Source: an uncultured bacterium (GTDB lineage Bacteria > Verrucomicrobiota > Verrucomicrobiia > CAIQCK01). From it: a DNA stretch of 64,000 nt. The notes below the pieces were generated by a model that saw nothing but the letters and a program-made list of their open reading frames with translations, was not told the DNA's origin and made no database searches. Of the stretch, positions 57,370 through 64,000 are shown in pieces. The number at the start of each line of letters is the position of its first letter. Positions within the stretch are counted from its first letter, which is position 1. The translations under genes and the position numbers were made by a program. The stretch is from assembly GCA_903870275.1 (NCBI GenBank), contig CAIQCK010000103.1, forward strand, positions 3,819 to 67,818, in the 5' to 3' direction.

Positions 57370-60300
57370 TCATTTGCGGAGGTTGGCGCGCAGCTCGGCG
57401 ATTCGGTCCTGGTAATATGCCTTCTCGACGCTGGAGAGGTTGGCCTCCAACTGGTCAATCTCAGCGAGTGACGGAAGGTGAGTTTCTGTATATGCCGGCC
57501 GGAAGAGGAACAGGTTCAATACTTGTTCCCTCAGATCATCGAAGTATTGTCCGTTGCGCTTCACCGTTCGCGGTGGCAGCAACATGACCATGCGTATCAC
57601 TTCGTTTCGAGCGTCCGTCTCGTCGCTTTCAATCAAGTATCTGCTCGCGGAATAACGAATCTTTGGATGATCGGCCGCAAGCTGTTTGATCGCAAAGACT
57701 TTGATCTCCTGCCCCTTGAGTCCATGAACCGCTTCATAGATGGCATCGCCGAAACAATTGTTTTTTCCGGGCTGCCCGCGAAGTAAAAGAGCCAGTTCGA
57801 GTTTGGCAAGGCCGTAGCCTGGATCGTGTTTGATAAGATACCGCAGCAAGGCCGCCTGAATCGTGCAGGCCCACCCGCCGTTGGAAGATGAATACAGGGC
57901 CTTTACCTCGTCGAGCAAGGCTGGTGAGCCATAACGCCCGATCACGAAGCTCATCTTGAAAAGGTCGCAAGACCGCTGACCACGCCACGAAAGAGCCGCA
58001 ACCCGAAAGGCCGCATCCAGTTCCGGTACAGGTTGCTCCGGAAGCGATGCCAGTCCTTTGAAAGCAAATCGCGGGTAGCCGCTGCGAATGTCCTCCAGCA
58101 AAAGTTTGCGCGCAGCGTCTGAACCCAGTTCGATCAGACGCTGCATAATGTCGTCGGCAATCGTGTGGCCGGCGTCTTGTTCGGGTTTGTCCGGCAGACG
58201 CAACATCGCTTCAAGCACGGGCTGGAATTGCTGGCAGCGCACGCGTGACCACATCTCATCGCCGAGCACGGCACGTTGTTCGTATTCCTGGAGTCCCGGG
58301 AATGCCTGTGCCAAAGCAAGGCGATCCTTCATCGAAGCACCCTCGCCAACGTTAAGATGATACCGAAGCGCCACACGGCTCTTGAGCGGGCGAAACTGCA
58401 TGGGTATGGACGAAACATCGTAACCGGGATCGCCGGACGGTGAACGTTGCGGCTCCTCGATGCTCACCGGTTTGGTTACCCGATTCTCCAGGCTGCGTTC
58501 GCCGCCTGTGCCGTCATAAGCGATGGTCAATGACCAGGTGTAGTTGGTTCCGTATTTGTCCACCCATTGGTCTGCAAACAGATACATCTCATGATTGTCG
58601 AAGTCTTTGAAGCGGTCAAAAGTATAGCCTCTGAAGCGGCCAAAAGTTTCGCAACTGTTCCAAGCCGGTATGTTTCTTTCGGCCTCGGCGCGCGTCATGC
58701 CCGCTTTGATCGAAGCCGCTTGTGCCATCCAAAGCTTCTTGTCCTCCGGCGAACGCATGACTTTGTTGACCTTGACCGGTGCCAGCACTCTTTCCTGATT
58801 GTTTGGAATCCCGAACTTCTCTCTTTTGGAAACGTCGTAAGTGACTATCACTCGCCAGTCTGCCGAGACGAAGTACTGTTCGGTCATAGAATAGAAGTCG
58901 CCCCACCCGCTCCCGCAAAAGTCATAACTGTTTGAAGCCGGAGGAATCCATCGCGGCAAGATCTTCTCCACCTCCGCCCGCGTCATGCCCACCTTCACCG
59001 TCGCGGCACGGGCTTGCCAATCTGTTAGAGTGTCTTTGTCCTCAACGCGCACTGCCGCGTCATCAGCGTTCATTAACACCACCCGCAAACCGCGGTTGCC
59101 AATGCGATTGGGAGGCGCGCCGCCGTTGCCGCGGCAACTCGACGTGAGAAAGGCGGGATCGCGCATAAACGCCCCGCCTCGCAACACATGGCCTGTGCCG
59201 GAAACCGGGCCTTGAGGGTCTACCGGGACATTGGACAGATGCGGCTCATACCAATCCCTGCACCACTCCCAAACATTGCCGTGCATGTCATAGAGGCCCC
59301 ACGCGTTCGGCTCCTTCAACCCGACCGGGTGGGGCCTGTTTCCCGAGTTGGATTCATACCAGGCGTACATGCCAAGGCGGGTTTCGTCGTCGCCGAAGGA
59401 GTACTTGGTGGTGCTGCCGGCGCGGCACGTGTATTCCCACTGCGCTTCGGTCGGCAGCAGCGCCTTCATGCCGGGCACTTTCTCGCTCAGCGTGGCCAGA
59501 AACGGCTGGCAATCGTCCCATCGGACATTCTCCACCGGATTCCTCGGGTCTTTGGTGGGGTGCGGATTGCCGCCCAAGACGGCCAGCCATTGCTCCCGTG
59601 TTACTTCGTATTTCCCCATGTAAAACGGCTGGGTGAGAACGACCCGGTGCTTTTCGTTTCCATCGCCCATCATGAACGAGCCGCCGGGGATGAGGACAAA
59701 CGCCATTGTCACACCGCCGCCCAGGTTCACGGTGAGGGTTCTTTGCGCTTTTCGTATATCGGGCTCGCGGCTGGCTTTCGCAATGTCCGGGTGCCGCAGG
59801 ATACGGCCCTTGCCGGTGACCTCGTTCACGTCAATCGAATGAAAGACCGTTTCGGCGCGATCACTGACCAGACCCAATGCTCGCTCGTTCGGAAGTTTCC
59901 ACAATCTCTGGCGGCTGGCGTCGCTGAAGTCGGTTTTCCATTCGTTCATCAATCGGCCATCAAGAAAGGCGCGTACGCCGTTCTTCCGCACTTGCAGGAC
60001 CGAAGAATAAACCCGGTTGTTCGCCAGAGAGTGAGGCGTCCACACCGTCAGGGGGTTGTTGTTCGCCGTCCTGCCCTTCACCATTTCGAAGCCGAAACAA
60101 CTGTTGCACCAATGCCCCATCACCCAAAGAGCGGGTCTTTCGTCCTGCGAGAACAATTGCCCAACCGGCTCTTCTCCTTCGGTGCGGGTAAAGACTATGC
60201 GAAAATCGTATTCCTCCGGCGGCTCGTAGGGAATTTGCAGCCGCGCTGCCTGCACATCATCCGCACAAACCAGAGCCTCATCTCGCATCCTCCACCTTCC

Positions 60301-63300
60301 CAGAACCGCGTCCTTGATTGGATCAATAAGCGGCAACAATTGGACTGATCCCGGCCACGCCGCAGCGCTAGTCAAGTGAGCGTCTGCGCTGCCTGGCTCG
60401 AAGATCGAACCGTCATCCACCAAACCGAGCGAGCGGACGACGGTGTCACTGCGCCCAAAAACTCCGACAATCGGCTTGCCCATCCCGGCAAGTTTGATGG
60501 TATCGCCAACGCTGTTCTTGCCGCCAAGCCAGCCGCTCTTGTATCCATCATGAGTATCCAGACCACCGCCGGCGCCTTGGATCTTCATGAATTCGATCTC
60601 AAAGCCGTTAAGAAACACAATCCCCATCCCATTGAGTCCGCCAACCGCGTAGCCGGGCTTGGCCTCCACCGTCTGCGTGGGTTCCTGCACCTCTCCCTGC
60701 ACGGCGCCTAGAAACTTTTTCATGCCCGCGCGGTAGATCGGTTGCAAGGATTTCACCACCCTTTGGTTCTTCTCCTCCCCGAAACTGACCTTGAAGCCGA
60801 CCAGGAACAATTGCGGTTGCGGTATTTCCAAAAAGGCAGCGCCGATGCCGCTGCCGAGTGAAGCGGGCAGTTTGAGCATCGTAGATGTTGGTTTTTGCGC
60901 AAATGCCGGCGCGGCCATCTCAGCGTCGTCAAGCCCCGATGTGAGCCGCTTTTGCAATTGCGTTTCAGCAGTCTCGCGACCGGCTTCCGCGATTCCCAAA
61001 TGCGGCACAACCCTGCCTTTGCTGGTGATTTCTAACAGCTGGATCTCTTGAAAAACGACACGGCTTAGGAAACTCCCCACGCCGAGGCAATTGTGGTCTG
61101 GAATGTCCCAATGGGGATGAAGAGTGCCATCCTTGAAGTCTGTGTTCCAAATCGAAATCAGCTCGTTATTCAGGTAAGCCTTCACGCCGTTCTTCCGAAC
61201 TCGCAATAGGGAAGTGTAAATCTGGCCGTTTTTAAGGAAGTCCTGTCGCTTGACAGTGGTTGCATTATGTTGTGAATCCTGGCCGTTGATGTGTTCGAAG
61301 CCAAAAACTTTGTTGTGATCTCCAGCCATTTGCCAGAGGGCGGCGCGTCCAACGTGAGTCACATATTGGGCAATGCAATCGTTGCCGGAGGTGCGGATAA
61401 AAACGATGCGGAAGTCGTATTCTTCAGGCGGCTCGTAAGGAATCATTAGCCTTTCGTGTTTGCCGCTCCCGGAAACGAGACTGTCTCCTTGGAATGTCCA
61501 CGCTCCCTTTACGGCATCCTTCACAGGATCAATCAGCGGCATGAGATTGACGGCGCGCGACCATGCGGCGTCGTTTTCAGGCAGAGTAGCCAGTGCCTCT
61601 AACGTAAAAGTCTGCTTGCCGCTGCCTTGATTTGAGACAACGGTTTTTGACGACAGCCAACCACACAACTTTTTATCGGCGGAGAGTTCGGGAAGCGAAC
61701 TGCCAGAAGGCTCGGAGATTGTGTGAAACGTGACGGTTTCGTAAGGTTTCTTTGCATAAGACACATTCAGGGGTGCATGAGAAGCGGGGAAAACTCGCCA
61801 AGTTTCGTGGGGTGGCGTGCCGAGCGTGTCGGCTACGTAAGCAACTGTATCTGTCGGCACTTCCGATTCAAATGACTCGCCGGATATGAACGTGCATCCC
61901 ATGAAATTGGAACCCTCTGCGCACCACATAACAGTAGGTGGCACCGCGCAGTCAACGAACTGACAGGAACTAATGGTATTCCACTTGCTGCGAAGTAATT
62001 TCATGTGGTCGAATGGCTTGTCCTTCAAGCGCCTGTGCGCGATTTCCGGAAATCGCATTGACACGAATGCACAATGGGTAAACTGGATCCCGAAATCCGT
62101 TCCTTTGAGTGACGGGAACGCAGATTTGTAGAACAGACAGGAATCCGCCACCCACTTGGAGGAATAATAGCTAAACCACGCACCCCGCTTTTCAAACTGG
62201 CATCGGTCAAAGACGGCCCATTTCGCCTTCAGACCGTGGGGGTTAAGATTCTGTCTGATCGTAACGCCTCGTAGTACCGCCGGTTTCTCCGGCGTGCCTT
62301 CGATCGCAAACTCCCCGTCCTTGTTCAGATAAATGTCACCGCCTCGAATTTCCACTCCCGGCGCCACTTTGATCTCTATGGCGTGCCGGATATTTTCCTT
62401 TACTGCGTAAGTGCCGTTCAACACATACGGCCTCGACGTGTCTGTGAACGCGTAGTCCTTCTCGATGTTCAGGGGAAGGTAAGACTCATTTTGCTTATCA
62501 GTTCGCCACGGCGACCACCACAACAGCCCCGCGAGCGCGAAGGCGACAGCCGCGAAGGCTGCGAACACCAACGGCGCCCGCTGGCGCGGAGGAGTTGCTG
62601 CCGCGCCCGCCGCACCGCCCGCGCTCTGGGTCGGTTGCGATGCCGTGATGGTTTCCACCCGCGTCTTGACCTCACTGATTTGCTGATAGCGGCGTTCGGG
62701 TTCCTTTTCCAGCGCGCGCAACACAACTTCGTCCAGCCGCACATCAATTTGCACTTTTCTCGATGGTGGTTCGATGGGTTTGCCGGGCAGTTCGCCGGTG
62801 AGCAGTTCGTAGAGCACCACGCCGAGCGAGTAGATGTCCGCGCGATGATCGGTAACGCGATGCGCCTTCTGTTCCGGGGCCATGTAGGCTGGCGTACCGC
62901 CGGGCTCGGATCGTGATGTGGGCACTCCTGCGCGCGCGTCATTGCTTTCACAAACAGAAATGTCCGTGCTACGGCCGAGCATTTTCGCGATGCCGAAGTC
63001 GGCAATCTTGACGCGACCGTCCTTGTCCAACAGCAGGTTCTCCGGCTTGACGTCGCGATGCACGATACCGTGCTCATGGGCGTATTGCAGCGCCTCGCAC
63101 ACGGGAGGGACAATGGCCAGCGCCTGTTCCGGCGTGAACCGCTCCGCCTTCATCGCCTGGCGCAGGTTCACGCCGTCCACGAACTCCATCAGCAGGTAGT
63201 AGAAGCCGCCGGCCTGGCCGAAGTCATAAACCGTGACGATGTTCGCATGATTCAGCATCGCGAGCGCCCGCGCTTCGTGAGCGAACCGCTCGGCAAATTG

Positions 63301-63609
63301 CGGATCGCCTACGCGTTCGGGGGCGAGCAGTTTGAGTGCGACGAGGCGGTCGAGGTTCTTCTGTCGCGCCTTATAGACCACGCCCATGCCGCCACGGCCA
63401 AGGTATTCGAGAATTTCCAGTTGCGGGAAGTGCGGCGCCAGCTCCAGTGGGGACAGGGCCTTGCGGGACGCGACAGGTTCCGCATCCGGCTTCGTCGGCG
63501 CCATCGCCTCCGCCATCAGACAGCGGGGGCAAAGACCCGCCGTGGACGCCACCGGCAAAACTGCGCCGCACTTCGGGCACGCATTTGTCGCTGAAGAGGG
63601 TTCGCTCAT
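57370..63609 (-). CDS. giant transmembrane Ser/Thr protein kinase with a lectin-like/FGE-sulfatase ectodomain (2079 aa)
   Basis: Start at MSEPSS (63609). Zn-ribbon CPKCG...CPRC. Kinase motifs GRGGMGVVYKA, ALK, HRDVKPEN, DFG and APE. One TM (PLVFAAFAAVAFALAGLLWW). FGE-sulfatase block (MGKYEVTREQW...AQWEYTCRAG...GLYDMHGNVWEWCRDWY...VLRGGAF). The 114 upstream codons in the ORF track overlap the sigma gene region and are not credible. Confidence 0.92.
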   Translation of the reverse strand: MSEPSSATNACPKCGAVLPVASTAGLCPRCLMAEAMAPTKPDAEPVASRKALSPLELAPHFPQLEILEYLGRGGMGVVYKARQKNLDRLVALKLLAPERVGDPQFAERFAHEARALAMLNHANIVTVYDFGQAGGFYYLLMEFVDGVNLRQAMKAERFTPEQALAIVPPVCEALQYAHEHGIVHRDVKPENLLLDKDGRVKIADFGIAKMLGRSTDISVCESNDARAGVPTSRSEPGGTPAYMAPEQKAHRVTDHRADIYSLGVVLYELLTGELPGKPIEPPSRKVQIDVRLDEVVLRALEKEPERRYQQISEVKTRVETITASQPTQSAGGAAGAAATPPRQRAPLVFAAFAAVAFALAGLLWWSPWRTDKQNESYLPLNIEKDYAFTDTSRPYVLNGTYAVKENIRHAIEIKVAPGVEIRGGDIYLNKDGEFAIEGTPEKPAVLRGVTIRQNLNPHGLKAKWAVFDRCQFEKRGAWFSYYSSKWVADSCLFYKSAFPSLKGTDFGIQFTHCAFVSMRFPEIAHRRLKDKPFDHMKLLRSKWNTISSCQFVDCAVPPTVMWCAEGSNFMGCTFISGESFESEVPTDTVAYVADTLGTPPHETWRVFPASHAPLNVSYAKKPYETVTFHTISEPSGSSLPELSADKKLCGWLSSKTVVSNQGSGKQTFTLEALATLPENDAAWSRAVNLMPLIDPVKDAVKGAWTFQGDSLVSGSGKHERLMIPYEPPEEYDFRIVFIRTSGNDCIAQYVTHVGRAALWQMAGDHNKVFGFEHINGQDSQHNATTVKRQDFLKNGQIYTSLLRVRKNGVKAYLNNELISIWNTDFKDGTLHPHWDIPDHNCLGVGSFLSRVVFQEIQLLEITSKGRVVPHLGIAEAGRETAETQLQKRLTSGLDDAEMAAPAFAQKPTSTMLKLPASLGSGIGAAFLEIPQPQLFLVGFKVSFGEEKNQRVVKSLQPIYRAGMKKFLGAVQGEVQEPTQTVEAKPGYAVGGLNGMGIVFLNGFEIEFMKIQGAGGGLDTHDGYKSGWLGGKNSVGDTIKLAGMGKPIVGVFGRSDTVVRSLGLVDDGSIFEPGSADAHLTSAAAWPGSVQLLPLIDPIKDAVLGRWRMRDEALVCADDVQAARLQIPYEPPEEYDFRIVFTRTEGEEPVGQLFSQDERPALWVMGHWCNSCFGFEMVKGRTANNNPLTVWTPHSLANNRVYSSVLQVRKNGVRAFLDGRLMNEWKTDFSDASRQRLWKLPNERALGLVSDRAETVFHSIDVNEVTGKGRILRHPDIAKASREPDIRKAQRTLTVNLGGGVTMAFVLIPGGSFMMGDGNEKHRVVLTQPFYMGKYEVTREQWLAVLGGNPHPTKDPRNPVENVRWDDCQPFLATLSEKVPGMKALLPTEAQWEYTCRAGSTTKYSFGDDETRLGMYAWYESNSGNRPHPVGLKEPNAWGLYDMHGNVWEWCRDWYEPHLSNVPVDPQGPVSGTGHVLRGGAFMRDPAFLTSSCRGNGGAPPNRIGNRGLRVVLMNADDAAVRVEDKDTLTDWQARAATVKVGMTRAEVEKILPRWIPPASNSYDFCGSGWGDFYSMTEQYFVSADWRVIVTYDVSKREKFGIPNNQERVLAPVKVNKVMRSPEDKKLWMAQAASIKAGMTRAEAERNIPAWNSCETFGRFRGYTFDRFKDFDNHEMYLFADQWVDKYGTNYTWSLTIAYDGTGGERSLENRVTKPVSIEEPQRSPSGDPGYDVSSIPMQFRPLKSRVALRYHLNVGEGASMKDRLALAQAFPGLQEYEQRAVLGDEMWSRVRCQQFQPVLEAMLRLPDKPEQDAGHTIADDIMQRLIELGSDAARKLLLEDIRSGYPRFAFKGLASLPEQPVPELDAAFRVAALSWRGQRSCDLFKMSFVIGRYGSPALLDEVKALYSSSNGGWACTIQAALLRYLIKHDPGYGLAKLELALLLRGQPGKNNCFGDAIYEAVHGLKGQEIKVFAIKQLAADHPKIRYSASRYLIESDETDARNEVIRMVMLLPPRTVKRNGQYFDDLREQVLNLFLFRPAYTETHLPSLAEIDQLEANLSSVEKAYYQDRIAELRANLRK

Positions 63610-63653
63610 GTCACTGTCCTGACGTGGAAACAGGGGTTGGTTACAAAGTTTTT

Positions 63654-64000
63654 TTAGCTTCCCAAGGCGGCAAACAAGACGCCCATCTCGGTCTCGACCT
63701 GACCGGGATCTCGCAGCGTGCCGGCAACCTCCGACCTCACCAACTGGCGGAACCGTTTCTTCATGCGATGCACCGCGACCTTCAGCGCGACAGGGTTCAG
63801 TCCGCAGCCAGCCGCCATCGCCGTCTGATCGCCATGTGCCGCATCGCCGGTAAGCCACGGCTTGATCTGCTCGAAGAAAGCCCCGCGCCCTTCCGATGCG
63901 CACTCCCGCTGCAACGCCTCCAAAGCGCGAGCCAGCACGGTTAGTGCCCATTGCCGGTCAAAGGCCGCGTCGGGAGTCAACGCCTTCGGGTCTGCCACCG
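63654..64000 (-). CDS. ECF-type RNA polymerase sigma factor, C-terminal part (5' end lies outside the window)
   Basis: Region-4-like HTH (GLNPVALKVAVHRMKKRFRQLV), preceded by FDRQWALTVLARALEAL. The reading frame is still open at the window edge. It lies 44 bp upstream of the kinase gene. Confidence 0.8.
   Translation of the reverse strand, partial: VADPKALTPDAAFDRQWALTVLARALEALQRECASEGRGAFFEQIKPWLTGDAAHGDQTAMAAGCGLNPVALKVAVHRMKKRFRQLVRSEVAGTLRDPGQVETEMGVLFAALGS

Follow-up and report, generated by a model that had tools for sequence, protein, structure and literature searches.

A modular verrucomicrobial receptor Ser/Thr kinase: a putative glycan or cell-surface sensor with a conserved sigma factor partner

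The window (the whole stretch of 64,000 nucleotides that was analysed) comes from a Verrucomicrobiota bacterium and encodes a receptor Ser/Thr kinase of the Hanks type with a single membrane pass. Its ectodomain is plausibly a glycan or cell-surface sensor. With slightly better than even confidence, we favour a non-catalytic periplasmic ligand sensor (the ligand probably being a glycan) that drives the kinase, which in turn would control a partner sigma factor. The ectodomain would be a multivalent binding array. As its ligand, a polysaccharide or glycoconjugate is most likely, supplied either by the environment or by the bacterium's own envelope. Binding would alter the kinase's oligomeric state or conformation and lead to autophosphorylation. 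The kinase would then activate the sigma factor by phosphorylation and switch on its regulon. Such activation has been shown experimentally for EcfP/PknT and EcfK/PknS, where direct phosphorylation of EcfP and EcfK was demonstrated (PMC13147305).

The kinase gene lies in an open reading frame on the minus strand (57370..63951). We place its start at the ATG at 63609 (MSEPSS...), because a longer 5' start would overlap the sigma factor gene that ends at 63654. Gene callers chose the same 2079-aa reading in four independent assemblies. In our homologue search, the full domain combination was seen in identical copies only. One could suspect that the frame is chimeric through misassembly, or that several neighbouring genes were artificially fused: the junctions between TM helix and beta-helix, beta-helix and first ConA-like module, and FGE-fold domain and small modules are found in no other protein, GC content is 0.51-0.54 across the beta-helix and first ConA-like module compared to 0.63 in the kinase domain, and both the C-terminal cassette (small modules plus solenoid) and the jacalin-like module with the second ConA-like module occur as separate genes elsewhere. 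The first-pass annotation had itself named misassembly as a danger to its claims. We consider it very improbable. Gene calls give the identical full-length product on 11 contigs, which come from four or more samples that were assembled separately (ENA, JGI, NCBI), and the frame runs without interruption over 6.2 kb. Furthermore, with protein identities of only 45% and 30%, the internal repeats are too diverged for repeat-driven misassembly.

Table 1. Features of the kinase gene and its neighbours (positions in the window).
Feature	Residues (aa)	Position	Strand	Basis or remark
Transmembrane Ser/Thr kinase gene, complete	2079 aa	57370..63609	-	ORF and translation; stop codon 57370-57372
CPKC...CPRC zinc-ribbon-like motif, cytoplasmic	11-30	63520..63579	-	C..C pairs at aa 11, 27
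Hanks-type Ser/Thr kinase domain	65-330	62620..63417	-	Pkinase 2.6e-50; PknB-type model 65-330
Single predicted TM helix	346-368	62506..62574	-	hydrophobic stretch PLVFAAFAAVAFALAGLLWWSPW in translation
Right-handed parallel beta-helix (D1)	378-670, core ~378-630	61600..62478	-	five x-C-x-F rungs
First ConA-like (CBM66/DUF1080-like) jelly-roll (D2a)	681-868	61006..61569	-	
Jacalin-type beta-prism I (D3)	918-1067	60409..60858	-	
Second ConA-like module (D2b)	1084-1272	59794..60360	-	internal repeat, predicted fold
FGE-sulfatase-fold domain, without catalytic Cys pair	1303-1511	59077..59703	-	PF03781 4.9e-39
Small alpha-alpha-beta-beta-beta module, G-M-T-R-A-E-V-E helix (D6a)	1527-1620	58750..59031	-	DSSP of model B
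Second copy of small module (D6b)	1627-1725	58435..58731	-	30% identical to D6a
Alpha-solenoid tail (D8)	1737-2079	57373..58401	-	~19 helices, pLDDT mostly 85-95
Secreted HEAT-repeat protein, downstream	490 aa	55720..57192	-	HEAT_2 4.7e-98
ECF-type sigma factor gene, 3' part	222 aa; remainder past window end	63654..64000	-	tblastn

The head of the protein (aa 1 to ~340, zinc-ribbon-like motif included) is 60-80% identical among related loci. In most of the 80 related loci it is the sole part of the query that finds a match. Hence the head is conserved and the sensor variable. On the whole protein, the Pfam Pkinase model covers aa 65-285, and the catalytic motifs are intact (GRGGMG 71, VALK 90, HRD 184, DFG 204, APE 244); the zinc-ribbon-like motif reaches only E 0.24 with Zn_ribbon_3. 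The best NCBIfam match of the head is to PASTA-domain kinases (PknB/Stk1; 4.4e-82 over 65-330), which follow the same logic, with a Hanks kinase joined through one TM helix to a glycan-binding module that is repeated outside the cytoplasm. However, our kinase lacks PASTA domains and scores 277 where the family cut-off is 450. Judged by its sequence, it is an analogue of these kinases and not a member.

Around 1700 periplasmic residues follow the TM helix, divided into modules as in Table 1. All motifs quoted in the first-pass annotation were found: DRCQFEK 468, DSCLFYK 489, THCAFVS 511, SSCQFVD 547 and MGCTFIS 570 in the beta-helix, GYAVGGLNGMG 986 and PIVGVFGRSD 1046 in the Gly-rich (jacalin-like) module, and the BamE-like signatures GMTRAEVE 1541 and GMTRAEAE 1637. 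So was the TM helix, previously placed at aa ~346-367. The names given to the modules need more care. Pfam returns only Pkinase and FGE-sulfatase for the whole protein and no significant match for the beta-helix, the jacalin-type prism, the small modules or the solenoid. Per-segment hmmscan gave no match for the beta-helix, both ConA-like modules and the tail, its best values being 0.032 (Jacalin) and 0.068 (BamE). By sequence thresholds, the kinase falls outside PF06439, PF01419, PF04355 and every HEAT family. Direct hmmscan did not confirm the names, but structure prediction with fold search did so at the fold level. The ectodomain is a chain of folds of the sugar-binding type, and the seven proposed parts are very nearly as guessed, with the BamE-like modules and the tail more weakly backed.

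In the predicted structures the modules fold independently, strung like beads on disordered linkers; the geometry between domains is of low confidence (pTM 0.42 and 0.56). Each module recurs in other kinases or as a stand-alone secreted protein or lipoprotein. Every module is a mobile, independent evolutionary unit. In neither of two cases examined did a kinase gene adjoin a stand-alone cassette, a point against our favoured reading.

Calling this architecture unusual was an overstatement. On single-pass Ser/Thr kinases of the PVC superphylum, periplasmic FGE-sulfatase and DUF1080 rank with the most frequent accessory domains: FGE-sulfatase is third in abundance, and DUF1080 leads those confined to the periplasmic side (PMC11032199). 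Our kinase has the same layout (cytoplasmic Pkinase, one TM helix, periplasmic C-terminal sensor), and the relatives that we found are verrucomicrobial kinases with 1-7 ConA-like modules and/or FGE domains. Compared to the surveyed kinases (PMC11032199), it is extended by a beta-helix, a jacalin-type prism, a pair of small alpha/beta modules and an alpha-solenoid, and its ConA-like modules stay under the PF06439 threshold. Elaborate though it is, it exemplifies a known type of bacterial sensor, not a new one.

The same folds could also form an enzyme array that processes periplasmic or surface glycans, while the kinase only reports or regulates the activity. In that case the beta-helix would act as a lyase or hydrolase on polysaccharides, the ConA-like modules as 3-keto-disaccharide hydrolases or GH16-like enzymes, and the FGE fold as an oxidase. 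ConA-like, beta-helix and DUF1080-type folds can indeed be catalytic, which counts against a sensor, as does the use of lectin-type folds for protein-protein contacts and as spacers. Still, we think an enzyme array unlikely. The beta-helix belongs to a rare family without a Pfam model; its sequence matches no lyase or hydrolase family, and non-enzymatic autotransporter passengers are among its equally good neighbours in the fold search.

For the ConA-like modules, which are under the PF06439 thresholds, the best fold match is CBM66, a binding module. The claimed second copy is real (aa 681-890 and 1083-1293 are 45% identical over 211 aa, E 1e-64). The closest known counterparts are CBM66 of B. 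subtilis levanase (4b1m), the solved DUF1080 proteins 4jqt, 3hbk, 3imm, 3u1x, 3h3l and 3s5q, and YesU (1oq1). Sequence identity to all of these is only 9-16%, and a profile built from 43 copies of the module found no solved relative by sequence. The family carries the signature IPYEPPEEYD and an invariant D, G and Y.

The jacalin-like module scores 15.1 bits with Jacalin and its relatives at most 21.5, where the Pfam cut-off is 22. Jacalin-related lectins near it are Heltuba (1c3k), ZG16 (7o3i), WGA16 (3woc) and the archaeal Mevo lectin (7bsb). The sugar-binding Asp of plant lectins (C-terminal GxxxD loop) presumably aligns with an Arg here (GRSDTVVRSLG). Joined to the second ConA-like module, the prism also occurs as a stand-alone protein of 400-540 aa (P0051-P0055, ~80% identical over aa 902-1272).

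Catalytic residues within the ectodomain were compared in the FGE-like domain only. The domain had been described as complete, and it is real, yet both catalytic Cys are replaced: GGSYLCHDSYC of the S. coelicolor FGE aligns with GGAFMRDPAFL. The degenerate pair favours a binding role and speaks against an enzyme array: the domain would bind or serve as a scaffold, not generate formylglycine. Its nearest solved relatives, T. denticola TvpA (2y3c, 1.3e-30) followed by PvdO (5hha, 2.3e-19), likewise have an FGE fold that lacks the copper-binding Cys pair. These are stand-alone proteins, whereas here the fold is one bead of a kinase ectodomain. Because a redox step still depends on PvdO, "non-catalytic" is a label that we infer.

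The proposed duplication of the small module is borne out (aa 1531-1620 and 1627-1725, 30% identity, E 2e-11). Its likeness to BamE extends to a 17-residue motif and the predicted alpha-alpha-beta-beta-beta topology, but not to membership. Single modules are below significance against Pfam BamE (2 of 20 at E<=0.1), the match covers profile positions ~8-25 only (E 0.059-0.068), and a profile of the family found no BamE among solved structures. In one relative, P0048, the repeats sum to 34.8 bits. BamE homology is, from such data, not established. The tail, annotated as ARM/HEAT, is all-alpha and its best Foldseek PDB matches are ARM/HEAT proteins (designed ARM protein, importin-alpha, AP2, PP2A-A, alphaRep), but these are weak (E 2.7e-3 and weaker). 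Its relatives match HEAT_2 at 0.0074-0.021. The tail also occurs as stand-alone secreted proteins of 373-391 aa with signal peptides (P0038-42, 59-68% identical).

Elsewhere the C-terminal cassette forms lipoproteins with lipobox-like signal peptides (for example LLAAGCG in P0036), and the BamE motif is characteristic of small lipoproteins of the outer membrane. Together with the beads-on-a-string arrangement and a beta-helix like autotransporter passengers, this would suit a mainly structural ectodomain: a tether or adhesin that spans the periplasm and fixes the kinase to the wall or outer membrane through its BamE-like and solenoid end. Envelope integrity or distance would then be sensed mechanically, not by binding a soluble ligand. 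We give this little credence, as nothing links the fused cassette to the outer membrane and the BamE homology is unproven. Since ectodomains are freely swapped among orthologous sigma-kinase pairs, changing ligand specificity fits better than a fixed structural role.

A ligand sensor may also have a co-receptor. The secreted HEAT-repeat protein encoded next to the kinase may be a periplasmic partner that the C-terminal cassette docks. We draw this link because a fusion in another organism (P0037) has an N-terminal half 68% identical to the HEAT-repeat protein and a C-terminal half 62% identical to kinase aa 1530-2003, and because the relative P0045 carries BamE-like modules followed by HEAT repeats. 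Against a co-receptor counts that HEAT and WD40 neighbours are not conserved beside related kinases.

What the first-pass annotation overlooked is the output, an ECF sigma factor gene directly upstream whose pairing with the kinase is conserved: of 79 related loci across the phylum, 67 have a homologue upstream on the kinase strand (median gap 52 bp). Sigma factor and kinase are a conserved two-gene unit, and across relatives the sigma factor and the kinase head are kept while the ectodomain is swapped. The gene is complete in locus L001 (650-1318); in the window, tblastn places residues 109-222 at 63998-63657. The protein is very divergent (TIGR02937 8.8e-5, 22 bits against a cut-off of 42.9; PF07638 6.7e-3). 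It was placed in none of the numbered ECF groups. Most homologues have Pfam hits to sigma-2/sigma-4: among 20, 14 match Sigma70_r2 (best 2.5e-9) and 13 Sigma70_ECF.

Known pairs are EcfP-PknT (Vibrio parahaemolyticus) and EcfK-PknS (Xanthomonas citri) of ECF43 and the planctomycetal kinase-linked groups ECF59-62. Like ours, they have the sigma gene beside that of a transmembrane Hanks kinase with variable extracytoplasmic domains, in a locus free of anti-sigma genes (PMC13147305; PMC7826278). Kinase-associated ECF groups have no anti-sigma factors and are regarded as directly phosphorylated (PMC7826278).

It is quite unlikely that kinase and sigma factor adjoin for co-expression only, with the kinase signalling through different substrates in the manner of PknB-type kinases and the sigma factor under separate control. 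Bacterial Hanks kinases commonly have many substrates, a point in favour of co-expression only. A second point, which also counts against sigma factor phosphorylation, is a missing switch. In ECF43 and ECF59, uncharged residues including phospho-acceptor Ser/Thr replace the sigma-2.2 DAED motif (PMC8103513). Our sigma factor instead has AAREMAHEFF, without Ser/Thr, and a sister subfamily keeps the canonical DAQDLTQEFF. However, co-expression alone sits poorly with the widely conserved same-strand adjacency and with L001, whose called genes (sigma factor, kinase, HEAT, WD40, WD40) include no anti-sigma-like gene. Moreover, the sigma factor offers alternative candidate phosphosites, an invariant Thr202 in its conserved tail and a conserved KRGGG linker.

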